This document shows positions 2,450 to 23,688 of a DNA stretch of 56,271 nt, piece after piece; the first letter of the stretch is position 1; each line of letters opens with the position of its first letter. Below the pieces are notes generated by a model. The model did not search any database and had not been told where the DNA came from. It was given only the letters and a program-made list of their open reading frames with translations. The stretch is from Candidatus Omnitrophota bacterium (GTDB taxonomy: Bacteria > Omnitrophota > Gorgyraeia > 2-01-FULL-45-10): positions 1 to 56,271 of the forward strand of contig JAUYOL010000023.1 in the NCBI GenBank assembly GCA_030695905.1. Reading direction: 5' to 3'. The translations under genes were made by a program, and so were the position numbers.

Positions 2450-3156
2450 AAGATAAAACTTTTTTAATAGTAGCGGCCGGGATAATAATAGTTTTAAGTA
2501 TATTATGCGCTGTTTTTGTTCTTAATACCTATAATTTGAAAAATAAAGTTGCCCAGAGCAATAGTATTATAGGTAAGATAGAGTCCGAACTTGGCCGCGT
2601 GCGCGAGGAAAAAGAAGAGATAGCGCGCAAGAGCGAAAAACTCTCCTCCGATGCCGTTTCATACTTAGCGATAAATACAAAGCTGGCTGAAGAAAAAGAT
2701 CAGTTGAATAAGAAACTGGAGGGCGCGCAGAAAATTATAGAAGCAAAAGAGGCGGATCTGCAGAGGTCGCAACAAAGGCTCAAGGACATAGAGAAAGAAG
2801 CCGTTACGGCTAAAAAAGCCAAAGATGACAAGCTGGCAAGAGAGAAGAGGTCTTTAGAGAAGAAGATAATCGCTACATCGGCAGCCATAAAAAAAGAGAG
2901 AGCGCTTTATCATTACAACTTAGGCGTGGCGTACGCGCAAGCCAAGCTTTATGATGAAGCGATAGAGGAATATGAAAAGTCGTTGGAATTTGACAGTGAC
3001 AACGCGGACGCTCATTATAATTTAGGTATATTGTATGAGACGATTACCAGTGATGCCGAACGCGCGATGTCCCACTATAAAAAATATCTCGAAATTAATC
3101 CGCGGGCTGAAGATATTGATGAGGTAGCCGGCCGCATAAACAGGCTGAGTAAATGA
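2446..3156 (+). CDS. Membrane-anchored coiled-coil + TPR protein (paralog 3)
   Basis: TM helix, about 120 aa of charged coiled coil, then TPR (HYNLGVAYAQAKLYDEAIEEYEKSL, HYNLGILYE...SHYKKYLEINPRAEDIDEV). ATGA overlaps at both ends. Confidence 0.7.
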   Translation: MKDKTFLIVAAGIIIVLSILCAVFVLNTYNLKNKVAQSNSIIGKIESELGRVREEKEEIARKSEKLSSDAVSYLAINTKLAEEKDQLNKKLEGAQKIIEAKEADLQRSQQRLKDIEKEAVTAKKAKDDKLAREKRSLEKKIIATSAAIKKERALYHYNLGVAYAQAKLYDEAIEEYEKSLEFDSDNADAHYNLGILYETITSDAERAMSHYKKYLEINPRAEDIDEVAGRINRLSK

Positions 3157-3437
3157 GACATATTGTCACCGGGCTTGTTGCCCTTCTGATAATTTTGCTG
3201 ATATTTATAGATGCGTACATTTTTATAGATAGCCAGATGTTAAAGAAGGCTATAGAGGCCAAGTCAAAAGAGCTTATACATAAAGTAAACGAAGATCAGA
3301 AGTTGATTAAAGAACGGATAGAGCGAATACACAAAGAAGATATGGCAGTTTTTTTTGAGAGATATAAAGAATTGGAAAAGGAAAAAAATAGAAGACGGGA
3401 AATGGAGAAAATTTTAAGCGATAAAAAAGTTAAATAA
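3153..3437 (+). CDS. Small membrane-anchored coiled-coil protein
   Basis: 94 aa with one TM helix (VTGLVALLIILLIFIDAYIFI) and a Lys/Glu-rich helix. Translationally coupled (ATGA) to the upstream gene. No recognisable family. Confidence 0.5.
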   Translation: MRHIVTGLVALLIILLIFIDAYIFIDSQMLKKAIEAKSKELIHKVNEDQKLIKERIERIHKEDMAVFFERYKELEKEKNRRREMEKILSDKKVK

Positions 3438-3444
3438 AATAAAT

Positions 3445-3473
3445 TTGCCAAAACGAAAAACCGGTGGTATACT
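3445..3473 (+). promoter_or_regulatory. Sigma70-type promoter, TTGCCA-17 nt-(TGg)TATACT
   Basis: -35 TTGCCA at 3445-3450, 17-nt spacer, extended -10 TGgTATACT (TG 3465-3466, TATACT 3468-3473). The same TGGTATACT occurs at 30846-30854. Confidence 0.55.
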
Positions 3474-3504
3474 TATAGTAGAAGTAAGGAAAGTTAGTAA
3501 TTAG

Positions 3505-3575
3505 GAAAAGGCAAACCCGTAGTAATACGGTGACGCAAAGCAGTGCGTCCGCCAAGTGCGGAACGGCAGGCTGCC
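3505..3575 (+). promoter_or_regulatory. Candidate c-di-GMP-I (GEMM-I) riboswitch aptamer
   Basis: GGCAAACC (3510-3517), a hairpin with GNRA tetraloop CCGUA-GUAA-UACGG (3517-3530), GACGCAAAGC (3532-3541), then a long irregular hairpin 3540-3574. This matches the core of the V. cholerae Vc2 aptamer as I recall it (GGCAAACC-hairpin/GAAA-GGGACGCAAAGCC). I could not build the closing P1 helix by eye. Confidence 0.55.
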
Positions 3576-3594
3576 AAAATTGCAAATATTGTTT

Positions 3595-3623
3595 CCCAGG
3601 CAAGGCAGCCTGGGATTTTTTTT
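3595..3623 (+). terminator. Intrinsic terminator / riboswitch expression platform
   Basis: CCCAGGC (3595-3601) pairs with GCCTGGG (3608-3614) across a 6-nt loop, followed by T8 (3616-3623). GGCAGCCTG (3604-3612) is also exactly complementary to CAGGCTGCC (3567-3575) at the 3' edge of the aptamer. Confidence 0.75.
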
Positions 3624-3682
3624 CAAAATTTTGAAAAGTGCCACGCTGAAATGGTGTTTTAAATGACAAAAAGGAGATAGCA

Positions 3683-4651
3683 ATGCCCAGAGTGCCACGC
3701 ATATACATAGAAAACTCCATTTGCTACGTTACATCCCGGGGCGACCATGATGAGGTCATCTTTAGAGAGGGTGGTGACTATCAAATGTATCTGGAGTTAT
3801 TAAAAAAGGCTAAAGAGCAATACAGGTTCAAGTTATTCGCGTTTTGCCTCCTTCCAAACCACCTGCACCTGCTCATAGAGCCGGATGATGAGGGCGCCAT
3901 ATCCCAGGTTATGCATGGCCTTAATTCGAATTATACAAAATACTTCAATGGCAAATATTCAAAGAGCGGCCATCTGTTTCAGGAAAGATACAAGATGGCG
4001 CTTATTGAAAAATCCCCGAATCTGTTGAATGTTACCGCTTATATACATTTAAATCCTAAGGCCCTGGGCATAGCCGCTGAAATTAAGGATTACCCCTATT
4101 CGAGTTACCCCGCTTACCTGAACGCGAAGACGGCCATTATAAATATAGGAGGAGAGGTAAGAGAGATATCGGGGTATCTTAGCGGAAAAAAATATGAAGA
4201 TTTTATTTCCGGCATAGCGCTTGGCTTTTTGCAGGATCTCGGCAAAGAGCTGTCAAAAAGACCCATAATAGGATCCGATGAATTTGTGGAAAAGGTAAAG
4301 AATAAAATCGAGAGCGATAAATTAAGGGTCGCGGAAGGTTCGCTCTCCGGCTCCATGTTCGGTATTATGTCCGGCAGGAAATTTCTCGCGGCATCGGGTG
4401 TGGCAATTGTCCTGCTCGGGGCATTGACATTTTATCTTTATTCAAGGGCATCGGCATTCAAGGACAACCTTAAGAATAAGGAATCCGAATTCAGCGGCCG
4501 GTTATTAAAAGCTAAAGACGATCTTAAGAAAGATCTTGAAGGAAAATATCGCGCGGATATGGTCTCTTTTGAGGCGATGACAAAACGTCTTGAGATGGAG
4601 AAGCAAAAGGCCGGGGAGCTGGAAGAGCAGCTTAAATCCCAACAGCCTTAA
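3683..4651 (+). CDS. HUH/Y1 (IS200-like, REP-associated tyrosine transposase-like) domain protein with a C-terminal TM helix and coiled coil
   Basis: The first ~150 aa match the COG1943/Y1_Tnp pattern: YHVxxRG-like YVTSRGDH, HUH motif LLPNHLHLLIEP, GHLFQERYK, and catalytic Tyr context TAYIHLNP. A TM helix (AASGVAIVLLGALTFYLY) and a Lys/Glu coiled coil follow. RBS aaaGGAGa lies 6 nt upstream. Confidence 0.75.
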   Translation: MPRVPRIYIENSICYVTSRGDHDEVIFREGGDYQMYLELLKKAKEQYRFKLFAFCLLPNHLHLLIEPDDEGAISQVMHGLNSNYTKYFNGKYSKSGHLFQERYKMALIEKSPNLLNVTAYIHLNPKALGIAAEIKDYPYSSYPAYLNAKTAIINIGGEVREISGYLSGKKYEDFISGIALGFLQDLGKELSKRPIIGSDEFVEKVKNKIESDKLRVAEGSLSGSMFGIMSGRKFLAASGVAIVLLGALTFYLYSRASAFKDNLKNKESEFSGRLLKAKDDLKKDLEGKYRADMVSFEAMTKRLEMEKQKAGELEEQLKSQQP

Positions 4652-4666
4652 AAAATCAGAAAGAAG

Positions 4667-7600
4667 ATGATTACCATGAAGACAAATTTAATTGCAAAGA
4701 GGGCGTTTTCAGGTTTCGTGGTGACATGTTTTATGCTCTTCTCCTCCTTGTATATATGGGCCGCCTATTCCCAATGGACCGACTCGAACTGGGCCCCTAC
4801 AAGCACTTATGTATACAAAACCGCCGCTATAAATACGTCCGGTCCGGGACTTAAGATTGATCCCGAAGTCGTGCCTGTTACAGATAGTGCCGCGAGCGAT
4901 TTTTTAAAAGGTACGAAGGGTCCTAATGTAATGATAGCTGGAAGTCCCGATGCCAGCCTTGAACTTGCGCCCACAGTGGATCCTTTTCCCGCCACTCTCG
5001 GGCAATGGGGCGAGTTGCCGTCTATACCTGCCCCGGGCGTCTACACGCGTTATATGAGGATGGGCGATTATATATATTGCATATTTGCCTCTGGAGACGG
5101 CAGGCAATTCGGCAGGATAAAGATAAGTGATATGTCGGATCCCGCAAAATTTCCGAAATGGGAGTTTTTGGAGCCCCTGCCTGTGGGGGTATCGGCAGGC
5201 ACCGCCGTTACTAATGACGGTGAGTATATATATGTATTGCGCGGCAGCGGTTCAAAAGAGGTTTATTTCTACCTTCCTCCGGAAATTACCGACCCGGATC
5301 CAGGTGATACCAAATTTCCATTCCTCTCTCCCGGTCCGGGCGAGTGGAAGAAATTTGGTACCGATACAATTCGTCTTACACAGGCTGCCAATGTTGGAGC
5401 GGATATTGCGCATACAGGTAGTCCTCTGTCTACAAAAAACGGTTATCTATATGTATTGAGCGGGGGAGATTCAAGTATATACTCCCGGTATGACCCCAAC
5501 GGCATTCTTAGTAATCTATGGGGAGGCCGCGCCGGGCTGACCGGTATTTTGGTTAATAGCGGAGCAAGTTTGTCCGTCAAGCCAGGCGATAATTATATCT
5601 ATGCTTCGATACCGAATACGAATAACATTAGGAAATATACAATTACCGATAATGTCTGGGCAACGAATATGCCTCCATTGCCTGTGGATACCGCAGGCCA
5701 TTCGCCGAGTTTTACGAGAGGCGCCAGGATATATTATCCCGGCTCCGGCGAATATTTATATGCATGCGGCATTTCAGAGACTTATGTGGGCCCTTACTAC
5801 ACGACAAAAACAAACCGCGGATTTTATAGATTTGGCCCTATTACCGGGACGCCGGCCTGGACACGTCTGGATGACTTACCCGCCCAGCTTTCAGAATATG
5901 GTTTCGTGATATACGATCCTGATATTGGCACCGCGAGTGAAGGCACGCGGCTGCATCTCGTTTCAGGGAAAAATTATACACGTCCGTGGGAATACAGCGT
6001 TACAAATAGTAAATGGAATACCCTTTCACAGGCGCCTCTTAGGAAAAATGGCATGGCATTGATCTCTCCAGGCCCCGGCAGCGACTATCTCTATTATGTG
6101 CCGGCAGATACAACTAATAATTTTTTCCGCTACACGATCTCCCGTAATAGATGGGAAGAGTTGAAGTCTTTGCCGGATAATATCGGCTCTGCCGGAAACC
6201 GTATCACGTATCTCAACGGATATGTATATTGCTTGCAGGGAAATAACAATAGTGGTTTCTGGCGTTACGATGTCAGTCAAGCTCCTGGAGCTGATAGCTG
6301 GGACATATCCCTTCCTCCCTTTCCTCTTACAGCGGGCGGCGGATCCGGAATAGTCGGTGTCAGATCGGGGGGCAATGATTATATATACGCCTTGCGCGCA
6401 AGCGGTACCAATACTTTTTATAGGTATGGTGTTACCAGCCAGGCATGGGAACCAATGGCAAATGCGCTGAATGTGTTTAGTGGGAACGGTATGGTATATC
6501 CGGGTTATCAGGAATCAGATGGCTATACCTATATATATGCCTCGTCAGATGGTGGTAGCGGCAACTTCTATAGATATGGGCCTATAGAGGAGGACGTGGA
6601 TGGAAATGGGGATGGCGTTATAGGCCAATGGCAGGCGAGAGCGCCGACTCTGTTTGGGAATGGAGCCGGATTTATGGGTATAGGAGCCCACTTATATTAT
6701 GTAGGCGAAGGAAAGATACGCGCTTCTCTTAAAAGTGGTACCTCTCAAAATCTTGTCTATTACATCGATACAAATATCTGGGAACTTAAAGAGCCCCTTC
6801 CATTTTATGATGGTATCAGCGCGCTTACTTCAGATGAGACAAGCATCTATGCTCTTTATGGTTATAGCGATGGCGGGTTCGCCAGATTTGATCTGGCCGG
6901 CCAATCATGGAATGAACCTGTGGTAAGCAGACATGGCTCTATCGCAGGTAATGCCGTAAGTGATAAGGATAAGAATATATATTTCGCATATGGGTACACC
7001 TGGTATAACACAGGTATGGATGCCTGGCATATATGGGTCTATTCACCGTCTTTAAGGCGCTGGACAGGTCTGATGAGGTGTCCTTTCTGGATAGCCAAAG
7101 GCACAAAGGCTGCCTATCTACAGGGTAAGAACGCTCTATTTATTACAAAAGGATCCGGATCAACCAAGCTTTATAAATATGATGTATCCTCGGGTCAATG
7201 GAGCGACTGCAACCCCGGAGACAGATTTTATGCCAATACACAGGTATGCGCAGGATATACAGAGAACGGCACTATGGAGGCAGTATATGCCGTAGGAGGA
7301 CCGAGTGGCAATACCCTATATATGTATTCTCCGGATGCGGATAGCTGGACATCGCTTATTACAGGGTTGCAGGTTTCTACCAAGCAATCTAATGTTATGG
7401 CGTATGTAAACGGTAAGATTTATGTGATAGCATTGGGGACCGGGGATCTTTACGCTTTCGATGGAACCAGCTGGGAACCGAAGGGGAAAATAGGGGGCGC
7501 AAATCCGGTATCTACGGATGAAGGCTGCGCTTTATTCAATAAGTCCGGTTCTAATTACCTGTATTGCATACCGTCATCTCCATCCGATTTATTTTTAAGA

Positions 7601-10600
7601 TATGATACAACTGCGCAGACGTGGAGCCAGCTTAAGTCTCTCCCAGCTATACCATCGCCCCTACAGCAGTTTACCAGTATAGCGGCTACCAGCATAGTGG
7701 ATACAGGGGAAGATTGGTTATACGCGTATAACGCGACATGGGGTGAGAATTTTATACGTTATCACACCGTAAAAGATACATGGGACACATCGAAGTTTTT
7801 ACCGTCAGCCCCACGGTCCGGCAGCGCGATGTGCGGTTACAACGGTTATATTTATTATATTAGCGGAGATGCATCGGGTACTTTTTATCGTTATGATATA
7901 GCCGGTGATGCGTGGGATTCGTTATCTTCCTCCCCACAAATATTTTCAAATAGTGGAGTCAGCATGGCGGTATCAACTTATAGCGGCGAGCGCGCCATAT
8001 ATGTGACAGGCGGCGAAAATCAGACGGGATTTTATAGATATGACATCCCTGCCAATACATGGACGACGCTTAGCTCTCCAGGGACATTTGGCGCCGGCAA
8101 TGCCTTGACTGCGGTAGGGGGATATATTTATGCGCTCAAGGGTGGCGGCACGGTTTTGTGGAAATATAATATAGCAACTGGGACATGGGATGCAACAGCA
8201 TATACTGTGCCTTCAGTAGGATCGGGCGGCAGTATAGTTTATCCCGGTTCCGGCGATTGGGCATATATTTTATTGGGCAACAATACCCCTACCTTATACA
8301 AGTATCATTGTACAGCTGGAAATTCGGTTAAGATCAGGGACTGTCCTGTGAATGTCAGAGAAGCACAGTCTAAGATGGTCTACCCGGGATTTGGAAATTA
8401 TATGTATTATTTACAGGGAATTTCTTTTTCTACTACCGATGATTCATCCGTATTTTTAAGGTATTCCATGACTGCGGATTCATGGGAAGAGCTTATCCCT
8501 ACGTCTTTTACCAGTAAAACTCCTGCGGCATTGGCTTGCGCCGACGGGACAAATTTCTATATATTTCAGTCCCCATATAGCAGGTTGTCCAGCTACAAAG
8601 CCTTTTCAATAGGCGAATATGTATCCGATATGAAGGAGGTTGGTAACCATGATGGCTGGGGTAATGTAAGCTGGGACGCCAACGGTTTACAGATGATGGA
8701 TATAAGGGCCCGGTCGGGAAATGACGCCAATCTTAACGACGCCGTCGAGTGGCGTCTGGCGCCGTCCATCCAGAATCCCGTTGATTTGGATGCCTTAAGT
8801 TCCATGCGCGTTGCGGACAGGTATTTTCAATATAGGGTCGTTTTAGCTACCGACAAACTAAGCGAGACCCCGCAATTACAATCGATAAATTTCGATTATG
8901 AAAGATATGGCTACACCACGCAGGAGATTATCTCGCGCGTATTCGATTCCGGGCGTGCGAATAATCGTATTATGTCCATAAAGTGGAGTGAAACTCTTCC
9001 TGTAGGCACTGACATACGTTTCCAGATGAGGACGGCTTCTACCGCAGCCGGTTTAACGGATATTAATACACCTCCCTGGCTGGGGCCCGGCGGAACGCAA
9101 GTTTTTAATTATCCGTTTGACAGCGCGGTATCCTATGAAAAAGACGACCATATTAAGCTCGATGAAACAGCAGGTGTGGCCAGGCTCTATAAAGATCTCG
9201 AGGACCATCCTTATTCTCACGCGCTTACCCTTTATAATAAGACAGCAACCGATCTAACTAACCAGATAGTGTCTGTCCACATACCTTCTTCATATGAGCA
9301 TTTTTGGCAGCATATCCGCCCTGACGGCGCAGATGTAAGGTTTCACGATGGGGCCAGCAAGATAAGCTATTTAACAAGTTCATTTGATTTCGCGAACAAG
9401 GCCGCCTGGTTTAACATAAGGGCCACTGTGCCAGCCGGCGGTTCAAAGACGATATATATGGTTTATGGTAACGGCCAGCCTGTCTCGGAATCAGACGTTT
9501 CTTTAAGAGACTATAGTTCGTTTACTACTCACCCGACCCTTAGGGCGTGGTGGGATTTTGAAGATGACACCCACAATACGTATGCGGACGATACCGGTTC
9601 CGTGGACGGTGTCAACAATAAACTAAACTTTCAACCGGTTCCGCCGACAGTGTCCCCGGAACGGATATCAACAGGCATTTTCGGATCTAAAGCTGTGAGC
9701 CTGGACGGGGTGCGTGATTATATGGTGACAGATCTTAGTCCTAATTTTACGTATACAGGCGGGAGTAAAACATTATCTTTCTGGATAAGGCCTAAACCTG
9801 ATCCTGATGGCGGTAGGATCATATCGGTTGTAAATCCTTATAATATAATAATCATGTTCGAAAACCCGAATACAGGAAAGCTGAATATCCGTGTGGGTAA
9901 TGGGGATATTGACAATGTCTTTAGCAGAAGCACTTCGAAGGCCCTTCCGTTTGATAATGCCTGGCATCATGTGGCCCTTGTCTTAAGCCCTGACAAGACT
10001 GTAAAAGTCTATATGGACGGACAAGTAACGGATACATGGAGCCAAGCCGTAACTTCATGGAGCCAATTCCTTCCCCCCATTAATCCTAATTCTACCACTA
10101 AACTTACGGTGGGTAATGTGTATCCTCTTGATTACGGTGCTGGTTTCCCGCAGTATTATTACACCGGAGACATAGATTTTATTTCGGTGTTTGAAACAAA
10201 TTTTCAGGAAAAAGAGATAAAAGACTTGTATGTGGGAGCTGATACCAAGAACCGGTTCGGCTTGGTCGTAAAAGAAGAGTCCGTCAACCAACCGGTCCCA
10301 ACCGGTTATCCCGGGGCGGGAAATATCTTTTATTACAGGGTGCCTATAATACTGGACAATTCCGGCAAGCCAGCCAAGCCGGGTCTTAGCCTGATAGATA
10401 TAAATCTTGACGGTTGGTCTGAATACTGGACGCATACAAAAGGCACGAGAAAAGATATGATGGTTACAAATTCTGATGGTGTTACAGTTTTGGGCGCTAA
10501 TTGCGATCCCGAGAACTACAATTTCGAAGCAAAGACAGCGAAAGTTACAATAGAAATCCCGGCACTTGCTGCCGATGAAATAAAAACCATTTATTTCTAT

Positions 10601-13600
10601 TACGGTAATAGCGCTACCCTCACGACAACTATCAAAAACTATAGCATAGGCAGCCCCCGTAATTTTACGGGTAAGGTAATCCATCCATATACTGATGTCG
10701 CGGCAAATAATTTTGGGGCAGGTAATTACTACACGGACAACCCAGTGGTCCAGCCTATATACGGTGTCTTCTATGACAGTGATGACGACATTAACCTATT
10801 CAGCGAGGTCGCTAACAAGCCGGCCACTACAGACATAAGATACCAGATTTCACGGGATGGGTATAACTGGTATTGGTGGGATGGTTCGGCCTGGAGCAAA
10901 ACCGATATGGGCTATAGCCAGACAAATAACGCCGCCGAAATAAATTTACATCTGGCGCAGTTCCAGACAATGCAGGGCTTCTCTTCGGGCGAACTCTCCT
11001 ATCGCGCCTGGCTACATTCTGATGACGGGTCCTTCACGCCTTCTCTGGACAAGGTAGCGGTGGGTCTGGTAACAGGCGAAACATACTATACCGACGCGTC
11101 CGGCATGGAAAAGATAAACGATCTCCATTCAAAGTATGTAGGCGATGACCGGTATATGCAGTATAAGGCTATACTCTATTCGCAGGGCAAAACAACGCCC
11201 GTATTAAACAGTGTTACCATAGATTATATCGAACCGGTCATAGCGGTCACTTCTCCCGCTCTGAACGAAGAGTGGCCTATCGGCAGTTCGCAGACGATAA
11301 GATGGACAGCGCCGGGCCTGGAGGATACGACAGGCGGGGTAAAGATAGAGTATTGGTCTAATAAAATCAATAATTGGGAAACGATAGCCGCCGCTGCCGA
11401 GAATGACGGTGAATATTCATGGCCTGTCAGCGACGATCCTAACCTATCATCTTATGTCAGGGTAACATCCAACGATGTTGGGGCCATTAGCGGGACATCG
11501 GGGAAATTTATTATAAAAGGCTTGATTATGACATCTCCTGTTGGAGGCGAGATCTGGGAGGCGGGCACCACTACCCATAATATAACATGGGACTCTTTTG
11601 GCACCGGCGGGTTACCGGAAAATCCACTGCTCAGGATCTTATATTCTATTGATAGCGGAGCGACATATCCGCCGTCTAACCTTATCGCCAGCAACCAGGA
11701 AGATGATGGTGTTCTTGAGTGGGCCATTCCCCCGGCGCTGCAGTCCGATAATGTCCGGGTGCGCATTGTGCTCCAGCAGAACGAGCAGGTAATAACTGAA
11801 TCAAAAACGGACTTTGGGGTCGTGCCGCATCCTCAAATCACGATCGAAAGCCCTGCCGGCGGAGAAAAATGGATAGCGGGGTTAAGCTATGAAATAAATT
11901 GGAAGACGAATACCCAGCAATTCGCGCCAATATTCATATTGGAATATTCGGTTGACGGAGGCGTTACATGGCCTTACACGGTCGATCCGGTGGCAGGCGC
12001 GCAGTATCTCATCGCTGAAGTTAATTCAGGAGCCATGGCTACCCCGGCCAATCCCAATAATGATTTGATAGGAACCTATAACTGGTCGGTCCCTAATGAG
12101 GTATCTTCTAATGTAAAAGTGAGGGTCAGTGAGAAGACCGTCCCGGCCAATAGAGATACTAATATAAAAGTAATATCACCGCCATCCGAAAGTTTCGAGA
12201 TAGCGGAACCATCCATAACTGTTACGGCACCCAACGGAGGCGAGGTCTGGGTTGTTGGCGACTCAAAGATGATAGAATGGCAGAATCAGGGGATTGTCGG
12301 CACTTCGTTCAGCATAAAATGGTCGCGTGATGATTTTAATTCGGTTGAGAATTCGGGTGACGTGACACCTGATGTCCCAAGTGCCTCCGGAAGTTTCCTC
12401 TGGCCGATACCTTCCGAAGTTATTCCTGCGGGAGAGACAGAGGCAATGGTAAAGATAAGGATAGTCGATAATAGCAAAGATACCCGTTATGACGATTCCC
12501 AAGAGGCGTTCAAAATTCTGGCTAATCCTAAAATTAAAATACTTTGGCCAGATGGCGGCGAGGCGCTCACGGCGGGTGTTAGATATAATATTACCTGGGA
12601 AACAACCGGAAAACTGGCGGACGACGCAAAGTATGACCTATATTACTCTACAACAGAGGTTGTTAATTGGCAGCCTCTGCAAGGTGCTACCCAGGTTGGC
12701 GTAAATAAAACTACGCATATAGGGACATTCCAGGACTTTTTTCCGCTTACCGTAACAAATCATGGCAGGATAAGAGTGGAAAGCCATAATAAGGATGCGT
12801 CAGGCAATCCGTTATATGTAGCCGAATCCGAGAATGCTTTCACCGTTAGTGAGCCTGTGATTGAATTGACTTCGCCTGCTGGCGGAGAGAGCTGGTTCGC
12901 GACAGGTGCATATGATATAACATGGAATACCATAGGTGACATTAAGAATGACAGCGTAGTCATTGAATATGCGATAGATAACGGCGCCTGGCAGACTGTA
13001 TCGCCCGCTCCGGCGCCGGCCGAGATAGCGGCAAAATCTTATCAATGGCGTGTCCCCAATAATATCGGCTCTACCTTTAAGATACGCATAACCGATAACT
13101 ATTGGGTGGGACAAGGGTACAATGTCACCGATACATCTACCGGTAATGTAATATCCCCAACAATAATGATAACACAGCCTACCCCGGACTATTATTGGGT
13201 AATCGGAGTACAGGGTACGGTCTCCTGGACCACGACGGGCGGTGAGACAGGCGCTATAAAGAAATTAAGGGTCCGGTGCATAGCCGATGCCTCGCATACA
13301 TATATTATCGGAGAAGTTACAGATCCGGCTGTCATAGCATCCAATGCCGGCAGCCTTAACTGGACGGTCCCGGCGGATGCCCCTGATTCAAAAGGCGCGA
13401 ATAAAGCCATTATAGAGATATCCGATACGGATCCTGATGGAGTCGGTGTTATCAAGACGGGGGAATTTAATATTAAAGCCCCTTCTTTCCTGATAAATGA
13501 GCCTTCTTTGAGGCCTTCCTGGAAAGTCGGGACGCCGCACACTATAAGCTGGACTGACCTCGGCAGTATTCAGTATCCCGTGAAGGTATTTTGTCGTACC

Positions 13601-16600
13601 AGTGGAGGCGCTACGGTCTATCTGGGGCAGGTTGATAATCCGGGGGCAGCATATTCGTGGAATGTCTTTGATAATCCCGGTGGCACAAGCATCCCAATCG
13701 GAACATCGTATATAATCCTCGAAGATTCACATACGCCTCCTATTGTCACAAAATGGGATGACCCTATCCTAAGAGAAGGCCTGTTTTACGTTGAGGCGCC
13801 GAGGATAAATGTTTCCACGCCATCCGGCGTAAAATGGACGGAAACCGATACGCAAACCATATCCTGGGCGGCCGAAGGCAAGATGATGGGCAATATAAAA
13901 GTTGAATGGTCGAAGCCTGTCGGCGGAGTGGAGCAGATCCAGAGCCCTCCGATTGCCAGTGGACTTGCGGCGGATATCACAGAGGCGCAGTGGGTTAACA
14001 TTCCGCCCGAGGCGGTAGGCAGTCAGGTGCGATTAATAGTAACGGATGTGGATTCGCCGTGGGGAGTAAAAGGTTCATCCGCTCTTTTTACGGTATTCGC
14101 GATCCCTGAATTTACGTTTTTGAAGATTTGTGATCCCGCGACAGGGGAAGAAGTCGATAAGATGCGCATAGGTAACACGTATAAGATAAAATGGGACGAT
14201 AACAACGGCGCTTTCAGCAATAGCCTGGAACTCGATTACTTTACCCAGGCGGAAGGATGGCGCGACATTGCAGGCGCTTCTCCTATTCCAAACCAGAAGG
14301 AATTTTTATGGAAAGTCCCTGACATCGGCATTACGCCATGCGCGAACGCACAGGTGAAAATATCCGATACTACGCCATGGCAGTCGGGAAATCCCAACGT
14401 GACTACGCTTGAATCAACCGTGCTTCCGCTCGTCCGGCCCGTTTTTGAAAACGTAATAGTCGCTAAAAACGCCTCCTCTAATGTCCATGAACAGTATATC
14501 GCATATGGTGAGAGCCCTGTCATTAAGTGGCAATCCGATGGACATATAAACGAGAATGCCGTCCGTATCCGGCTTATTACCGAAACACAGGATATAACAA
14601 TCGGTTCGAACCTTGCCGATGCCGGTAGTCACGCCGGGTGGATAATGCCCGATATCCCGGTAAGCAGCCAGGCGAAGATTTTAGTAGAGGATGTTGTGGC
14701 GGATTATGGCGGCATAAAGGTCATCGATGAATCAGCAGTATTCAATATTATTACAAAGCCTGAACTTAGACTTCTTTCTCCTGATGGGGCCGAGGACTAC
14801 GTTATAGATAAGGACACTATCCCGATTACATGGGAATCAAAAGGATTGACCGTTGATAATGTGAAGATAGAGATGTCCGCGAATGATTTTGAAACCGCGT
14901 ATACTATCGTTGATTCGACTCCTAACGACGGGAGTTTCAACTGGTATATCATGAATGATCCCAATGTGCCCGCAGGCACCCATGTTAAGATAAGGGTCAG
15001 TATGGTCGGCAGGGAAGCGGGAGTTCGTGATGAGTCAAATAATTATTTTACAATCAGAAGCGGTTTTGACATAAGCTCGCCGTCAAAAGACATGGAAGAG
15101 GTATGGATGACGAACGAAGAAAAAGAGATACGCTGGCAGACAAGAGGGAGTATCCCCAAAGTCAGCGTCTTCTATAGTATAGACGGCGGCGCTAACTTTA
15201 TCCGTATAACCGGTCCTGAAGGCATAGACAATACAGGTGTCTTTCTCTGGAAAGTACCGAATGAGCGCACGGACCAGGAGCTCCCTGCAGATCCGTCCAA
15301 AAAAGTCATCATAAGGATCGGGGAATGGGTTGCCGCGGATCCGTATATTTCAGATTTGATCAAGAATGACTCGAATACTTTCGAGATATCGTGGTATACA
15401 ATAAAATTCTATATTATCGACAAGGATACGTATGATAACCTGAAGAGTCTGACCATAGAATGCAACGCGGATGCCGCGCAGAACTTCCCTGAATGGAAAG
15501 TCCTGGATTTCTCCGTAAATTCGCCCATATCGCACGAATTCCCTTACGGGACATTCTTGACAACATGGAATACCAAACCCACGGCCCAGGGCGTGCCGGA
15601 CTATTTTACAAGGACAGTTGAGGTAAAAGCGGATGCCGCTACCGCCGCGAAAGGTGTAATTGTGGATATGGAGAACAGGATTTCCGCCACGATAGAATGG
15701 CATGTCCTTCTCTCTACTTCCTACATGGCGGAAACGGATAAGATGGAGATGTCTACATGGCTCGAACGCAGAGGCCGCCTTGTGGAACCAAAATTCATAG
15801 ATACAAATGAAGATGGCGTGGCCGATACCATTGTAAAGGACGATTTTAAGGGGGTAACAATTTCTGTGTATGATTATGATACAGATACCCTGTTAAAACA
15901 ATTTACGGCTATCCTGCCCGACGACAGAGGTGTTTACAAATTTACGTGGGACAATACCGGTTTACAGGCGGGTAAGACATATTTTGTCAAGGCCGCTTTT
16001 ATCTATGGCGAGAATACATATACTTCAGGCTCATCGCTTGAAGTAACACAGGCAAAGAAACAACTGGAAGCGGCCCAACAGCTCGATACAATAGAGTCCC
16101 AGACAACAGTAATACAGGCGCAGACAACGGCCATACAGACCGCGGTAGAGCAGACGCTTCCGCAGAAGATCACCGAAGCGACGGGCGCTATAGAGAAGAA
16201 GGTAGACGCTACGAAGGAAGAGCTGAAGAAAGATACAGCCAGGATAATGACGGCCACGGAACAGACTATTCCCGCGCAGATCACGGAAAAAGTGGAGTCC
16301 GTTTTAAGGTCGGAGATCTTAAATAGGGAAAGCACGGTGCGCCTGGGTCAGAAACTCATGGTTCGATACCGGACTTATGCCGGGTTAGCTCCTGTAATGG
16401 ACGTGTATAATCCATATAATTTGCTTGTGATATCCCAGGCTCCGATGGTTGAAGTCGCGGGTTCGCCGGGTATCTATGAATATGAGATATTAATGGCGTA
16501 CGGTTGGAATGTGGGCGACTATACGATAGTATGTTCCGAGCCAACTAAGGGCACCATGGATGCCTTGCTTATATCCGTGATCAGGACAGACTTGGAAGAA

Positions 16601-17002
16601 GTCGCCAGCCAGGTAGCCACAATCATGGGAACGACCACAAGCCTGTCCAACCTTAAAGACGTGGCGGATACATTAAACAGTCAATTTAGTATCATAGAAT
16701 CGGCGCTCGGCAAAATAAGTACCGACCTGGTGGATAAGGTGAAAGAGGTCGCGTCCAGCGCCAATGACATCGAATCGGTATATAGCCAGCTTGTAAATAT
16801 AGGTAAAGAGCTTAAGACCCTCGGCGCCAACCAGGATGTGAATTTGAGTAAACTGCTCGAGGTCTCCAAAGAGAAGAGCCAGGATATCAAATATCTTAAG
16901 AATAAAACGCAGCAATTGAAAGCCGCCATGGAAATTAATACCAAGATGGTGGATAATATAGCTCATAAGCCCGTTACGCAGACATGGTTCGAATATAAAT
17001 AG
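4667..17002 (+). CDS. Giant (4111 aa) secreted/surface multi-domain protein, putative adhesin
   Basis: Uninterrupted 12,336-nt ORF with an N-terminal signal/anchor (FVVTCFMLFSSLYIWAAYSQ). Domain blocks are listed as separate features. The C-terminus has an Ala/Gln/Thr-rich coiled coil (QAKKQLEAAQQLDTIESQTTVIQAQTTAIQTAVEQ), one more beta-sandwich and a helical tail. No LPXTG, PEP-CTERM or T9SS-type C-terminal signal was recognised. Confidence 0.9.
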   Translation: MITMKTNLIAKRAFSGFVVTCFMLFSSLYIWAAYSQWTDSNWAPTSTYVYKTAAINTSGPGLKIDPEVVPVTDSAASDFLKGTKGPNVMIAGSPDASLELAPTVDPFPATLGQWGELPSIPAPGVYTRYMRMGDYIYCIFASGDGRQFGRIKISDMSDPAKFPKWEFLEPLPVGVSAGTAVTNDGEYIYVLRGSGSKEVYFYLPPEITDPDPGDTKFPFLSPGPGEWKKFGTDTIRLTQAANVGADIAHTGSPLSTKNGYLYVLSGGDSSIYSRYDPNGILSNLWGGRAGLTGILVNSGASLSVKPGDNYIYASIPNTNNIRKYTITDNVWATNMPPLPVDTAGHSPSFTRGARIYYPGSGEYLYACGISETYVGPYYTTKTNRGFYRFGPITGTPAWTRLDDLPAQLSEYGFVIYDPDIGTASEGTRLHLVSGKNYTRPWEYSVTNSKWNTLSQAPLRKNGMALISPGPGSDYLYYVPADTTNNFFRYTISRNRWEELKSLPDNIGSAGNRITYLNGYVYCLQGNNNSGFWRYDVSQAPGADSWDISLPPFPLTAGGGSGIVGVRSGGNDYIYALRASGTNTFYRYGVTSQAWEPMANALNVFSGNGMVYPGYQESDGYTYIYASSDGGSGNFYRYGPIEEDVDGNGDGVIGQWQARAPTLFGNGAGFMGIGAHLYYVGEGKIRASLKSGTSQNLVYYIDTNIWELKEPLPFYDGISALTSDETSIYALYGYSDGGFARFDLAGQSWNEPVVSRHGSIAGNAVSDKDKNIYFAYGYTWYNTGMDAWHIWVYSPSLRRWTGLMRCPFWIAKGTKAAYLQGKNALFITKGSGSTKLYKYDVSSGQWSDCNPGDRFYANTQVCAGYTENGTMEAVYAVGGPSGNTLYMYSPDADSWTSLITGLQVSTKQSNVMAYVNGKIYVIALGTGDLYAFDGTSWEPKGKIGGANPVSTDEGCALFNKSGSNYLYCIPSSPSDLFLRYDTTAQTWSQLKSLPAIPSPLQQFTSIAATSIVDTGEDWLYAYNATWGENFIRYHTVKDTWDTSKFLPSAPRSGSAMCGYNGYIYYISGDASGTFYRYDIAGDAWDSLSSSPQIFSNSGVSMAVSTYSGERAIYVTGGENQTGFYRYDIPANTWTTLSSPGTFGAGNALTAVGGYIYALKGGGTVLWKYNIATGTWDATAYTVPSVGSGGSIVYPGSGDWAYILLGNNTPTLYKYHCTAGNSVKIRDCPVNVREAQSKMVYPGFGNYMYYLQGISFSTTDDSSVFLRYSMTADSWEELIPTSFTSKTPAALACADGTNFYIFQSPYSRLSSYKAFSIGEYVSDMKEVGNHDGWGNVSWDANGLQMMDIRARSGNDANLNDAVEWRLAPSIQNPVDLDALSSMRVADRYFQYRVVLATDKLSETPQLQSINFDYERYGYTTQEIISRVFDSGRANNRIMSIKWSETLPVGTDIRFQMRTASTAAGLTDINTPPWLGPGGTQVFNYPFDSAVSYEKDDHIKLDETAGVARLYKDLEDHPYSHALTLYNKTATDLTNQIVSVHIPSSYEHFWQHIRPDGADVRFHDGASKISYLTSSFDFANKAAWFNIRATVPAGGSKTIYMVYGNGQPVSESDVSLRDYSSFTTHPTLRAWWDFEDDTHNTYADDTGSVDGVNNKLNFQPVPPTVSPERISTGIFGSKAVSLDGVRDYMVTDLSPNFTYTGGSKTLSFWIRPKPDPDGGRIISVVNPYNIIIMFENPNTGKLNIRVGNGDIDNVFSRSTSKALPFDNAWHHVALVLSPDKTVKVYMDGQVTDTWSQAVTSWSQFLPPINPNSTTKLTVGNVYPLDYGAGFPQYYYTGDIDFISVFETNFQEKEIKDLYVGADTKNRFGLVVKEESVNQPVPTGYPGAGNIFYYRVPIILDNSGKPAKPGLSLIDINLDGWSEYWTHTKGTRKDMMVTNSDGVTVLGANCDPENYNFEAKTAKVTIEIPALAADEIKTIYFYYGNSATLTTTIKNYSIGSPRNFTGKVIHPYTDVAANNFGAGNYYTDNPVVQPIYGVFYDSDDDINLFSEVANKPATTDIRYQISRDGYNWYWWDGSAWSKTDMGYSQTNNAAEINLHLAQFQTMQGFSSGELSYRAWLHSDDGSFTPSLDKVAVGLVTGETYYTDASGMEKINDLHSKYVGDDRYMQYKAILYSQGKTTPVLNSVTIDYIEPVIAVTSPALNEEWPIGSSQTIRWTAPGLEDTTGGVKIEYWSNKINNWETIAAAAENDGEYSWPVSDDPNLSSYVRVTSNDVGAISGTSGKFIIKGLIMTSPVGGEIWEAGTTTHNITWDSFGTGGLPENPLLRILYSIDSGATYPPSNLIASNQEDDGVLEWAIPPALQSDNVRVRIVLQQNEQVITESKTDFGVVPHPQITIESPAGGEKWIAGLSYEINWKTNTQQFAPIFILEYSVDGGVTWPYTVDPVAGAQYLIAEVNSGAMATPANPNNDLIGTYNWSVPNEVSSNVKVRVSEKTVPANRDTNIKVISPPSESFEIAEPSITVTAPNGGEVWVVGDSKMIEWQNQGIVGTSFSIKWSRDDFNSVENSGDVTPDVPSASGSFLWPIPSEVIPAGETEAMVKIRIVDNSKDTRYDDSQEAFKILANPKIKILWPDGGEALTAGVRYNITWETTGKLADDAKYDLYYSTTEVVNWQPLQGATQVGVNKTTHIGTFQDFFPLTVTNHGRIRVESHNKDASGNPLYVAESENAFTVSEPVIELTSPAGGESWFATGAYDITWNTIGDIKNDSVVIEYAIDNGAWQTVSPAPAPAEIAAKSYQWRVPNNIGSTFKIRITDNYWVGQGYNVTDTSTGNVISPTIMITQPTPDYYWVIGVQGTVSWTTTGGETGAIKKLRVRCIADASHTYIIGEVTDPAVIASNAGSLNWTVPADAPDSKGANKAIIEISDTDPDGVGVIKTGEFNIKAPSFLINEPSLRPSWKVGTPHTISWTDLGSIQYPVKVFCRTSGGATVYLGQVDNPGAAYSWNVFDNPGGTSIPIGTSYIILEDSHTPPIVTKWDDPILREGLFYVEAPRINVSTPSGVKWTETDTQTISWAAEGKMMGNIKVEWSKPVGGVEQIQSPPIASGLAADITEAQWVNIPPEAVGSQVRLIVTDVDSPWGVKGSSALFTVFAIPEFTFLKICDPATGEEVDKMRIGNTYKIKWDDNNGAFSNSLELDYFTQAEGWRDIAGASPIPNQKEFLWKVPDIGITPCANAQVKISDTTPWQSGNPNVTTLESTVLPLVRPVFENVIVAKNASSNVHEQYIAYGESPVIKWQSDGHINENAVRIRLITETQDITIGSNLADAGSHAGWIMPDIPVSSQAKILVEDVVADYGGIKVIDESAVFNIITKPELRLLSPDGAEDYVIDKDTIPITWESKGLTVDNVKIEMSANDFETAYTIVDSTPNDGSFNWYIMNDPNVPAGTHVKIRVSMVGREAGVRDESNNYFTIRSGFDISSPSKDMEEVWMTNEEKEIRWQTRGSIPKVSVFYSIDGGANFIRITGPEGIDNTGVFLWKVPNERTDQELPADPSKKVIIRIGEWVAADPYISDLIKNDSNTFEISWYTIKFYIIDKDTYDNLKSLTIECNADAAQNFPEWKVLDFSVNSPISHEFPYGTFLTTWNTKPTAQGVPDYFTRTVEVKADAATAAKGVIVDMENRISATIEWHVLLSTSYMAETDKMEMSTWLERRGRLVEPKFIDTNEDGVADTIVKDDFKGVTISVYDYDTDTLLKQFTAILPDDRGVYKFTWDNTGLQAGKTYFVKAAFIYGENTYTSGSSLEVTQAKKQLEAAQQLDTIESQTTVIQAQTTAIQTAVEQTLPQKITEATGAIEKKVDATKEELKKDTARIMTATEQTIPAQITEKVESVLRSEILNRESTVRLGQKLMVRYRTYAGLAPVMDVYNPYNLLVISQAPMVEVAGSPGIYEYEILMAYGWNVGDYTIVCSEPTKGTMDALLISVIRTDLEEVASQVATIMGTTTSLSNLKDVADTLNSQFSIIESALGKISTDLVDKVKEVASSANDIESVYSQLVNIGKELKTLGANQDVNLSKLLEVSKEKSQDIKYLKNKTQQLKAAMEINTKMVDNIAHKPVTQTWFEYK
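4990..8610 (+). other. Kelch-like beta-propeller blade region of the giant protein (about 24 blades)
   Basis: A 45-55-aa repeat recurs: xYIYxLxGxxxxxFYRYDxxxxxWxxL. Examples are GEYIYVLRGSGSKEVYFY, NDYIYALRASGTNTFYRYGVTSQAWEPM, NGYIYYISGDASGTFYRYDIAGDAWDSL and RAIYVTGGENQTGFYRYDIPANTWTTL. Confidence 0.7.
9210..10615 (+). other. DUF2341-like / LamG (concanavalin-like lectin) / DUF2341-like block of the giant protein
   Basis: DUF2341-like segments: HIRPDGADVRFHDG...WFNIRATVPAGGSKTIYMVYGNG and YYRVPIILDN...MMVTNSDG...IEIPALAADEIKTIYFYYGNS. The LamG-like core is LRAWWDFEDD...SKAVSLDGVRDYMV...KTLSFWIRP...WHHVALVLSPDKTVKVYMDGQ. Confidence 0.6.
11231..15385 (+). repeat. 13 tandem Ig-like beta-sandwich modules (protein-level repeat, 96-126 aa each) in the giant protein
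   Basis: Each unit follows I.V.SP.GGE.W..G....I.W...G......I.YS.D.G..W..I......G...W.VP........VRI. Unit starts are near 11231, 11519, 11833, 12212, 12530, 12857, 13160, 13484, 13801, 14108, 14438, 14762 and 15061. The nucleotide sequences are strongly diverged. Confidence 0.7.
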
Positions 17003-19152: not shown

Positions 19153-19872
19153 ATGCTTTTACAGCTGGTAGCGTTACAAGTTATCACTTTTATCGCGATA
19201 GCCGTTCTTTTAAAGATATTATTTTCCCGCCATCTAAATTCCGCGCTCAAAAGGCTCAAAACACTTCAGGACGAGGCAATGCTGCGTGAAAACCAATTAA
19301 AAGAAGAACTCGACGGCGCCAAAAAAGACAGGCTTGAAGAGATAGAGAAAGGGAAAAAAGAAGCCAAAGCTCTTATAGACCAGGCGAAGAAGGAAGTTGA
19401 GGCAATCAGGACTGGGGCCGAGGATGACGCGAGGCAACAGGGTAAAAATATCTTCGCGCACGGTCAGGAAGAGCTTGAGAAGATAAAGGCAAAGATGGAG
19501 TCGGATATGGAGGGTAGATCATTGCAGCTGGCGGTAGATCTTATCTCTTACACCTTCAGCCATAAGGGCAAGGAAGATCTTCAGCGGCAATTCATAGCCG
19601 AGCTCATAGACGAGATAGCCGATCTGGAGAAGAACAAATTTTCTGTAAAGACAAACAAGGCGCATATATTAACGAGTTTTCCATTGACCGATAAAGAGAA
19701 GGAGAAGCTCAAGAAGGTCCTGTCCGAAAAGATGGGTTTAGCCGTTACAATAACAGAAAAGATAACACCGGAATTGATAACAGGTTTAATTATACAGCTC
19801 GATGCTTTGGAGATAGACGGCAGTTTGAAGAACAGGCTGCGCAAGGCGCTGCCGCTTTTAAAAAAGCAATAA
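19153..19872 (+). CDS. atpF: F-type ATPase subunit b fused to a delta (OSCP)-like C-terminal domain
   Basis: N-terminal TM helix plus a long charged helix typical of subunit b. The C-terminal ~90 aa (LTSFPLTDKEKEKLKKVLSEKMGLAVTITEKITPELITGLIIQLDALEIDGSLKNRL) resemble the delta C-terminal domain. No separate atpH is present. Confidence 0.6.
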   Translation: MLLQLVALQVITFIAIAVLLKILFSRHLNSALKRLKTLQDEAMLRENQLKEELDGAKKDRLEEIEKGKKEAKALIDQAKKEVEAIRTGAEDDARQQGKNIFAHGQEELEKIKAKMESDMEGRSLQLAVDLISYTFSHKGKEDLQRQFIAELIDEIADLEKNKFSVKTNKAHILTSFPLTDKEKEKLKKVLSEKMGLAVTITEKITPELITGLIIQLDALEIDGSLKNRLRKALPLLKKQ

Positions 19873-19874
19873 GC

Positions 19875-19894
19875 CTACACCGGGGGCGGTGTAG
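19875..19894 (+). repeat. Intercistronic GC-rich hairpin (copy 1 of a TACACCGGG...CGGTGTAGA motif)
   Basis: CTACACCG-GGGG-CGGTGTAG: 8-bp stem, 3 nt after the atpF stop and 13 nt before the atpA ATG. A near-identical hairpin lies at 43105-43121. Confidence 0.8.
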
Positions 19895-19906
19895 ATAAGG
19901 TTAAAT

Positions 19907-21400
19907 ATGCAAAAGAGTACAGTTATTTCGAGCCTCGATATACGCGAGGTAGGCGCTGTAAAAGAAGTAAAACAGGGCATAGTAAAAGTATCGGGACTTC
20001 CTTCCTGCATATTTGGCCAGCTGGTCGATTTTGGCCACGGCCAAAAGGGTATGGTGATGGGGTTCAATCAGTACGAAGTCCTTGTCATCGTGCTCGGCGA
20101 CGATTCCAGTATTAATACAGGTGATACCGTAACGAGCCGTTCTGAGTTATTGACGGTTCCCGTCGGGCCGGGGTTTGTCGGGCGTGTCGTGGACTGTCTT
20201 GCCAGGCCTATAGATGCCAGAGGCGACATAAAGGCGGCCGATAATTATCCGGTCTTCCGCGAGGCGCTCGGAGTTATGGAGCGCGAGCCGGTGACAGCGC
20301 CGCTAGAGACGGGAACAAAGATACTTGATATGGTGATCCCGATAGGCAAGGGCCAGAGAGAACTTGTAATCGGCGACCGGCAGACGGGGAAGACATCTAT
20401 CGCGCTCGACGCTATCCTGAATCAAAAAGGCAAAAATGTTATCTGCATATACTGCTATATAGGCGGCAGCCAGTCCGCGCTTAAAAAAACGATGAGCCTT
20501 TTAAATGAAAAAGCCGCGTCGCCATACACAATTGTTTTATGCGCTACCGCATCGAGTACGCCTGCCGAACAATACCTTGCGCCATATGTAGCCGCGTGTC
20601 TGGGCGAATATTTCATGTTCAATGGCCAGGATGTCCTGCTCATCTTCGATGATCTTACAAAACACGCGTGGGCATACAGGCAATTATCGCTTTTGTTGGA
20701 ACGGCCGCCGGGCAGAGAAGCTTACCCGGGCGATATATTTTATATCCATTCGCAGTTGATGGAACGCGCCGGTAAATTAAAGGCAGGCCTTGGCGGCGGA
20801 ACGATGACATTTTTACCTATAGCATCCACGCTGCAGGGCGATATCACAGGTTATATACAGTCGAACCTGGTTTCAATGACCGACGGGCAGATATATTTAA
20901 GTTCCGCCTTATTCTATGAAGGGTTTAAGCCGGCGATAGATCTTGGCTTGTCCGTTTCGCGTATAGGAAGCAAAGTTCAGTCTCCCGCTATACGTAATGT
21001 AAGCGGAGGCTTAAGGCTCCAATATGCGCAGTACCGAGAACTCCAGAGACTTACAAGGCTAAGGACGAAATTGTCCAAAGAGGCCATGGATCAGATAAGG
21101 CGGGGCGAGACCTTAAGAGAGCTTCTTATACAGGAGAACGGCAAGCCCGTGAGCATGGCCGAAGAGATAGTGATATTCTACGCGTTCAAAAAACGCATTC
21201 TGGAAATCCTGAAGCCGGATGTGCTGAAAAATTTTAAAAGAGAATTCTTCAAGTATCTTTGCAACGTAGAACCGATGCTGGTCGACAAAATAGAAAAAGA
21301 GCAGACGCTTACCGACGATATAACGACGTCGCTGGACCGTAATATAGTGAACTATTTCCAGGATACGAACCATTTGACAAAAGCTCATGGTTCGTCCTGA
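19907..21400 (+). CDS. atpA: F-type ATPase alpha subunit
   Basis: Walker A GDRQTGKTS, then LAPYVAACLGEYF, DDLTKHAWAYRQLSLLLERPPGREAYPGDIFYIHSQLMERA and ITDGQIYL-like SMTDGQIYLSS. Confidence 0.9.
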   Translation: MQKSTVISSLDIREVGAVKEVKQGIVKVSGLPSCIFGQLVDFGHGQKGMVMGFNQYEVLVIVLGDDSSINTGDTVTSRSELLTVPVGPGFVGRVVDCLARPIDARGDIKAADNYPVFREALGVMEREPVTAPLETGTKILDMVIPIGKGQRELVIGDRQTGKTSIALDAILNQKGKNVICIYCYIGGSQSALKKTMSLLNEKAASPYTIVLCATASSTPAEQYLAPYVAACLGEYFMFNGQDVLLIFDDLTKHAWAYRQLSLLLERPPGREAYPGDIFYIHSQLMERAGKLKAGLGGGTMTFLPIASTLQGDITGYIQSNLVSMTDGQIYLSSALFYEGFKPAIDLGLSVSRIGSKVQSPAIRNVSGGLRLQYAQYRELQRLTRLRTKLSKEAMDQIRRGETLRELLIQENGKPVSMAEEIVIFYAFKKRILEILKPDVLKNFKREFFKYLCNVEPMLVDKIEKEQTLTDDITTSLDRNIVNYFQDTNHLTKAHGSS

Positions 21401-21427
21401 GCGAAGTCGAAGGACCAAGAAAGGCGC

Positions 21428-23688
<2,261 letters not shown>

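Follow-up and report, generated by a model that had tools for sequence, protein, structure and literature searches.

The region 3445-3682 on the + strand of a 56,271-nt stretch of DNA from Candidatus Omnitrophota bacterium (contig JAUYOL010000023.1; this whole stretch is referred to as the window) is probably an operon leader with a canonical class-I riboswitch for cyclic di-GMP (c-di-GMP), which controls transcription termination and is OFF at high c-di-GMP. The leader precedes a gene encoding a 322-aa HUH protein and a giant gene encoding a 4111-aa protein. Its sequence is almost certainly a genuine class-I c-di-GMP (GEMM-I) aptamer and, judged by the bases at the predicted binding site, the ligand is very likely to be c-di-GMP. 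The RNA itself is not new but a member of a known family, since the class has been on record since 2008 and this copy would turn up in any annotation that uses Rfam. What is noteworthy is its pairing with a phylum-specific membrane-anchored HUH protein and with giant secretion-associated proteins in at least 32 species of Omnitrophota. Within the 5' untranslated region the order is promoter, aptamer, intrinsic terminator, ribosome-binding site (AAGGAG, 3672-3677) and the ATG at 3683, and this arrangement is conserved in relatives.

Assignment of the aptamer to its family comes from a scan of the whole window with Rfam 15, in which RF01051 was the sole match above threshold (54.7 bits against a gathering score of 35, E 5.4e-8) and covered model positions 1-87 of 87. 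An own covariance model, R1, scores the same aptamer at 80 bits. An earlier note made from the letters of this DNA had proposed a c-di-GMP-I riboswitch at this place, to be checked with RF01051, and had named the c-di-GMP-II family (RF01786) as a control; for this family a permissive scan of 3300-4800 (E <= 10) gave nothing, and the window as a whole holds no match at the gathering threshold. Other Rfam families returned at E <= 10 weak, terminator-driven NsiR1 and anti-hemB matches, far below their thresholds. The pieces of the aptamer that had been picked out by eye, namely GGCAAACC at 3510-3517, the first hairpin with its GNRA loop, U3531, GACGCAAAGC at 3532-3541 and a long irregular hairpin, were read base by base and all are present (Table 1), with the first hairpin being enclosed by the pairs G3511-C3536 and C3512-G3535.

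Table 1. Window positions of the elements of the leader and of the two genes that follow it
Feature	Position	Strand	Details
Sigma-70-type promoter	3445-3473	+	-35 TTGCCA 3445-3450, 17-nt spacer, extended -10 TGgTATACT 3465-3473
Candidate P1 5' strand (tentative)	3497-3502	+	GUAAUU with AAUUGC 3578-3583, 6 bp, picked by constrained minimum-free-energy fold
c-di-GMP-I (GEMM-I) aptamer	3500-3578	+	RF01051, full-length match
First aptamer hairpin	3516-3531	+	CCGUA-GUAA-UACGG; 5 Watson-Crick pairs 3517-3521/3526-3530; GUAA (GNRA) tetraloop 3522-3525
Second aptamer hairpin ('long irregular hairpin')	3539-3572	+	Rfam alignment
Switching strand	3567-3583	+	CAGGCUGCC 3567-3575 and UUGC 3580-3583; in the aptamer (second hairpin 3' strand, C92, P1) or paired with 3600-3612
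Intrinsic terminator	3594-3623	+	8-bp stem UCCCAGGC/GCCUGGGA (3594-3601/3608-3615, 6 G-C pairs), 6-nt loop, T8/U8 3616-3623
Conserved motif AGTGCCACGC	3637-3646	+	After the terminator, at a fixed distance
RAYT-like HUH (Y1_Tnp) protein gene, 322 aa	3683-4651	+	Pfam PF01797, E 4.2e-15
Giant gene, 4111-aa protein	4667-17002	+	N-terminal hydrophobic signal or anchor; Kelch, DUF2341 and Kre9_KNH Ig-like domains

In the Vibrio cholerae Vc2 numbering, G20, A47 and C92 contact the ligand (PMC4744006, PMC6140456). The positions that determine specificity were located by comparing the RF01051 consensus with those of RF03167, where GCAAAG is replaced by GCGAAG, and RF03168, which has U ahead of the GC pair and UGUC for UGCC, and were then checked against the Vc2 numbering in PMC4744006 and PMC6140456. 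All three positions carry the canonical bases in the window, G20 being G3510, A47 being A3537 and C92 being C3574. The earlier note was right in expecting canonical contacts, with G rather than A at position 20, and needed amendment as to the exact bases: G20 is the first G of GGC (G3510), G3511 pairs with C3536, and A47 corresponds to the leading A in the AAA run, not to the middle one. Since every contact base is canonical, the conclusion drawn in that note stands despite this amendment. According to PMC4744006, an interhelical Watson-Crick pair of this kind is universally conserved. C3534, within GACGC, and G3565, a bulged base that precedes GCAG, lie at the aligned positions and both are conserved in the alignments. 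By sequence position they presumably correspond to C44 and G83, and C3534-G3565 is hence the putative inter-helix pair. The two-hairpin fold is thus shared with Vc2, with G20, A47, C92 and C44-G83 present here by alignment; Vc2 has a GAAA tetraloop, whereas here the loop is GUAA, the part of the 11-nt receptor that reads CUAA in the Rfam consensus is missing, P1 is weak and the expression platform is a terminator. A GUAA loop without a CUAA receptor presumably resembles the 'type 2' GEMM arrangement. Within the same region, GACGCA 3532-3537 can pair with UGCGUC 3544-3549, giving a hairpin that competes with the aptamer junction and, in the folding models, may act as a trap for the unbound state; this complementarity holds in homologous leaders with GACGCA and fails in those with GGCGCA.

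The Geobacter GEMM-Ib aptamers, RF03167 (the GGC variant) and RF03168 (the UAU variant) belong to the same clan (CL00126) and have the same fold. The leader could in principle be a GEMM-I relative for another ligand, either 3'3'-cyclic GMP-AMP (3'3'-cGAMP) or whatever a variant class binds. In a permissive search the best E-value within the clan was indeed that of RF03167, and some of the homologous leaders are assigned to RF03167 or RF03168. However, the window scores 49.9 bits with RF03167, below its gathering score of 59, and reads GCAAAG and not GCGAAG; compared with the three relatives it has G and not A or U at position 20, A and not G at 47, and C and not U at 92. GEMM-Ib requires A at position 20, where the window has G3510, and the UAU and cGAMP variants are ruled out for the window by the bases at G20, A47 and C92. 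The canonical bases are likewise the rule among 34 homologous leaders described below, in which G20 is G in 33, A47 is A in all, and the AAA run and C92 are invariant (34/34). Another ligand is thus very unlikely.

The single leader that departs from G20 lies in homologous locus L028 (4199-4279), where A occupies this position (UAGCAAAC) and C92 is kept. An A at position 20 is a cGAMP-type signature (PMC6140456), which lends the variant reading some support; as read from its sequence, the combination of A20 and C92 in L028 marks cGAMP-sensing or bispecific GEMM-Ib aptamers. With site bases A, A and C, this leader nevertheless falls marginally to the UAU variant in Rfam, scoring 66.1 bits where 65.9 is the threshold.

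Conservation of the element was followed through the HUH protein, which has thousands of full-length homologues, those with names being Candidatus Omnitrophota. Scanning GTDB species representatives with an alignment of the HUH protein yielded 58 loci, in which aptamers were sought by a regular-expression search and then with a covariance model built from 11 leaders. With the own model, 34 strong aptamer matches (38-93 bits) were found in 32 Omnitrophota loci of other species, and the unit of promoter, aptamer and intrinsic terminator recurs in these 34 places; Rfam independently matches all 11 homologous loci tested. The aptamer nearly always lies 50-430 nt 5' of the HUH orthologue, and among the 35 loci in which a long-form orthologue has usable sequence 5' of it the riboswitch is directly 5' of the HUH gene in 29 and nearby in a further three. 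One locus, L018, holds two tandem units of riboswitch and HUH gene, with riboswitches at 3510-3603 and 5776-5870.

The two-hairpin fold was recovered unguided by RNAalifold from 11 leaders, with double changes in 13 of the 22 pairs. In an alignment of 36 rows, which was fitted to the model and hence is somewhat biased in favour of the structure, pairing holds in 94% of cells and double compensatory changes occur in 18 of the 22 pairs. None of 500 shuffles reached the observed values, and registers slid against each other pair in 30-43%. The first hairpin shows double compensatory changes in all six pairs (99.5% of cells paired) and the second has 11 of 14 pairs changed on both sides (91% of cells paired). 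Compensatory changes, which the earlier note had suggested looking for in related leaders, are thus abundant in both hairpins.

The terminator follows the aptamer and, apart from one additional base at its 5' end, corresponds to what had been read as 3595-3623. Its hairpin has a predicted energy of -15.5 to -16.3 kcal/mol, and a comparable terminator is present in all 34 homologous leaders, 12-37 nt past the aptamer in 33 and overlapping the aptamer in none. Directly 3' of the terminator stem lies a perfect A/T palindrome, TTTTCAAAATTTTGAAAA, at 3620-3637. The 9-nt segment CAGGCTGCC at 3567-3575, within the 3' part of the aptamer, is the exact reverse complement of GGCAGCCTG at 3604-3612, and the mutual exclusion of aptamer strand and terminator that had been noticed beforehand is hence borne out. 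This 9-bp anti-terminator helix has by itself a predicted energy of -17.1 kcal/mol and is extended by 3580-3583/3600-3603 in a constrained fold, and the duplex of the switching strand in the window has z = -4.1 against shuffles. The same relation is found across the homologous leaders, whose aptamer 3' strand (consensus GGCAGnCUGCC) is complementary to the terminator with a mean duplex energy of -16.1 kcal/mol and a mean z of -2.9, beating shuffled controls (p <= 0.05) in 25 of 34. Strand and terminator also change together: cognate combinations pair at -14.44 as compared with -12.79 +/- 0.37 after permutation among leaders, with none of 5000 permutations as low (p < 0.0002), and reading of the leader sequences reveals the compensatory changes directly, as in CUACC/GGUAG, AUCGCC/GGCGGU and GGCAAG/CUUGCC.

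A mechanism can be proposed on this basis. Transcription would start near 3480 from the 3445-3473 promoter, and the aptamer (approximately 3497-3583) would fold while it is being made. When c-di-GMP is bound through G3510, A3537 and C3574, the strand 3567-3583 would be held in the aptamer, and with this strand held the terminator stem 3594-3615 followed by U8 would form and polymerase would stop near 3620. At low c-di-GMP, 3567-3575 (with 3580-3583) would instead pair with 3604-3612 (with 3600-3603), which would remove most of the 3' arm of the terminator, and polymerase would read into the HUH gene (3683-4651) and the 4111-aa gene (4667-17002). As the ligand would free the terminator and the unbound strand would block it, the switch would be genetically OFF at high c-di-GMP, in the standard design of such switches. 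This polarity, fairly likely from the layout of the leader, had been put forward tentatively in the earlier note and is strengthened by a terminator that does not overlap the aptamer and by the conserved and co-varying pairing of the strand. Class-I transcriptional OFF switches for c-di-GMP are established in Clostridioides difficile (PMC11477304), a precedent that is counted for the OFF reading. The leaders of the C. difficile flgB operon (Cd1) and of PPEP-1/zmpI share with the present one the RF01051 aptamer, the proposed OFF logic and a terminator 3' of the aptamer. They differ in that they control flagella or a protease in Bacillota, while in Omnitrophota the genes encode a RAYT-like membrane protein and a giant Kelch/DUF2341 protein, and the function of the leader is a predicted one.

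Several observations weigh against the OFF switch as drawn here. With a giant adhesin-like product, switching ON by c-di-GMP would be the more usual expectation, as for Bc2 and cap (PMC4933901). No gene for a GGDEF, EAL or PilZ protein was found in the window. Nine of the 34 leaders lack significant complementarity between aptamer strand and terminator. P1 is weak and devoid of fixed-column covariation: this approach gave no convincing helix, and the column pair 6-209 alone is supported (82% paired). The candidate P1 of Table 1 could include G3505-C3575 as a further pair, and the window shows mismatches when aligned to the P1 of RF03167. Finally, the unconstrained minimum-free-energy fold (-42.6 kcal/mol) already holds the terminator together with the non-aptamer hairpin 3532-3537/3544-3549. 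Polarity is hence not predictable from thermodynamics, as the terminator sits in the unconstrained fold, and read-through in the unbound state must be kinetic and co-transcriptional. Counted in favour of the switch is that, prior to ligand binding, the predicted energies of the two states in the window are nearly equal, with -36.9 to -39.8 kcal/mol for aptamer plus terminator and -37.8 kcal/mol for the anti-terminator.

These points bear on the opposite polarity, in which binding to the same c-di-GMP-I aptamer would prevent termination and the HUH and giant genes would be induced at high c-di-GMP. Its closest model is Bc2 of Bacillus thuringiensis, also a class-I riboswitch with a terminator platform directly before a large surface/adhesion gene, cap, and an ON switch (PMC4933901), which demonstrates that class-I ON switches before adhesin genes exist. 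An ON switch would fit the usual rule of c-di-GMP promoting adhesion, as the 4111-aa protein looks like a surface/adhesion protein, and a terminator formed in the default predicted fold would be in keeping with a repress-then-de-repress design. Unlike that of Bc2, the present architecture favours OFF. No nucleotide of the terminator stem 3594-3615 belongs to the aptamer, and therefore the bound aptamer cannot compete with it or block it directly; the sole strong alternative partner of the terminator 3' arm is 3567-3575, which the bound aptamer would sequester; and a strand-terminator complementarity that is conserved and co-varying is the signature of an OFF design. Induction at high c-di-GMP is thus improbable, and an OFF switch is preferred.

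Another alternative leaves the ligand out, such that the leader would mainly give a terminated RNA of approximately 140 nt acting in trans, or would be a constitutive attenuator, with control exerted through AGTGCCACGC/palindromic sites and a DNA-binding protein. Besides the terminator being predicted by default, this alternative draws on a conserved motif that is strongly positioned 3' of the terminator and in some lineages is present also 5' of the promoter. In the window a second exact copy of the motif lies at 3691-3700, in codons 3-6 of the HUH gene. Relatives carry GTGCC[A/T]GGCAC or GTGCCACGCA at 22-24 nt past the first T of the terminator T-run in 22 of 34 leaders, and in other lineages the motif is palindromic, often AAAGTGCCAGGCACTTT. 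In several loci (among the leaders of L010, L014, L019, L023 and L024) an identical copy of 12-17 nt stands just 5' of the -35, and hence in several leaders copies at both ends bracket the promoter-riboswitch-terminator cassette with direct repeats. No copies of the motif were seen at other places in the window or in the homologous loci. It may serve as an operator, form a hairpin in the mRNA or be a hairpin target for the HUH protein encoded next to it, and its palindromic form might be akin to repetitive extragenic palindromes (REP-like). A sigma-54 promoter reading of GTGCC.GGCAC was rejected by inspection, since the spacing from GG to GC is 8 nt and 10 are required. Against a role of the leader as a short RNA or plain attenuator, the invariant bases of the binding site and an anti-terminator that co-evolves with the terminator imply selection for ligand-dependent switching; moreover, the motif and the riboswitch could act together. 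This alternative is accordingly given little credence in comparison with the termination-controlling riboswitch.

The promoter of the riboswitch matches 10 of 12 hexamer positions and has the TG of an extended -10, with a predicted transcription start near 3480. Its two hexamers lie where they had been placed before, and the -35 begins 8 nt past the last base of the stop codon of the upstream open reading frame (ORF; 3153-3437). Promoter-like sites are not enriched over shuffled sequence (3 found against 4.0 expected), nor are terminator-like sites (2 against 2.3), and since these scores alone are no better than shuffles, the case rests on the aptamer match and on conservation. The pattern TTGnnA-16/17-(TGn)TATACT recurs in approximately 28 of 34 homologous leaders, 27-59 nt 5' of the aptamer core, and this conservation of position supports the claim that the riboswitch has its own promoter. 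On the + strand of 3000-5000 the scan predicted no further promoter or terminator, and it found no second sigma-70 promoter between the terminator and the ATG. A 96-aa ORF on the minus strand (3430-3720) covers the whole riboswitch and is almost certainly spurious, because the region changes by RNA compensation and by indels whose length is not a multiple of three.

The gene context behind the leader agrees with its first description. One gene encodes a Y1_Tnp/HUH protein and the next the 4111-aa protein, which begins with a signal or anchor sequence. Between them lie 15 nt in which neither a promoter nor a terminator is predicted, and the two would thus be co-transcribed. The HUH protein has a predicted transmembrane helix at approximately residues 234-252 and, after it, a coiled-coil tail that forms the C-terminus; the HUH motif and Tyr120 (Y120) are conserved, and the transmembrane helix is present in all 28 homologues examined. 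Matches to known relatives are weak, as seen with TnpArep of E. coli (PDB 4er8, E 9e-5) and with NCBIfam NF047646 (REP_Tyr_transpos; 70 bits, below the cutoff of 80). The HUH protein is no ordinary IS200 transposase but belongs to a full-length family conserved across Omnitrophota, and its sequence suggests a RAYT relative that has been domesticated and anchored in the membrane.

In related loci the order is riboswitch, HUH gene, 0-3 small ORFs and a giant ORF that runs off the fetched DNA, and giant ORFs homologous to the 4111-aa gene follow the riboswitch in most of them. Three loci have a riboswitch that is not before the HUH gene but downstream of it, namely L015 (4790-4891), L020 (9544-9638) and L030 (7543-7638). 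In L015 and L030 it stands directly before a large Kelch/Kre9_KNH ORF and in L020 before a small ORF that is followed by a large, open-ended ORF outside the domain scan. As these riboswitches sit before large ORFs, the giant gene emerges as the common target.

Recent work links the giant proteins of Omnitrophota to a predatory or host-dependent lifestyle, with a presumed role in attaching to prey or hosts or in attacking them. In the literature searched on Omnitrophota giant genes, on Omnitrophota/Omnitrophica riboswitches and on c-di-GMP, a link of c-di-GMP or of riboswitches to giant genes is unmentioned. The riboswitch probably turns the HUH and giant surface-protein genes off at high c-di-GMP, and such a polarity would tie production of the giant protein to low c-di-GMP. 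A broader and more doubtful proposal, somewhat short of an even chance, is that one phylum-wide cassette of promoter, c-di-GMP OFF riboswitch, terminator and bracketing GTGC-N3-GCAC motif governs giant surface proteins associated with secretion systems, co-expressed with a membrane-anchored RAYT-like HUH protein that maybe recognises the motif. If so, low c-di-GMP would be the trigger for deploying the giant proteins, and the cassette would offer the first concrete handle on the regulation of giant genes.

The neighbourhood in the window comprises genes for a secretin and tetratricopeptide repeat (TPR) proteins upstream and, downstream, for ATP synthase, a GspE-like ATPase with an MshEN domain, GspF, PilM/N and pseudopilins. 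This agrees with the secretion-system surroundings reported for the giant genes of Omnitrophota (bioRxiv 10.1101/2023.11.21.568195). The F-type ATP synthase genes (fused b/delta, alpha, gamma and beta; 19153-23688) lie between the giant-gene cluster and the genes resembling type II secretion system/type IV pilus genes, all on one strand. The GspE/PilB-type secretion ATPase is encoded at 23689-25359, and its MshEN domain is the only c-di-GMP-related domain found in the window. This domain family binds c-di-GMP in MshE-type ATPases; by analogy, it may provide a second, protein-level c-di-GMP input to the locus, if the domain here binds c-di-GMP. Simple-sequence repeats were not found in the leader of the window. 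In three relatives they occur between the terminator and the HUH gene, as (AGAC)21 in L021 (5802-5885), (AGAC)7 in L016 (3664-3691) and (AATGACA)5 in L014 (5952-5986), and these repeats could give rise to phase variation of the same operon.

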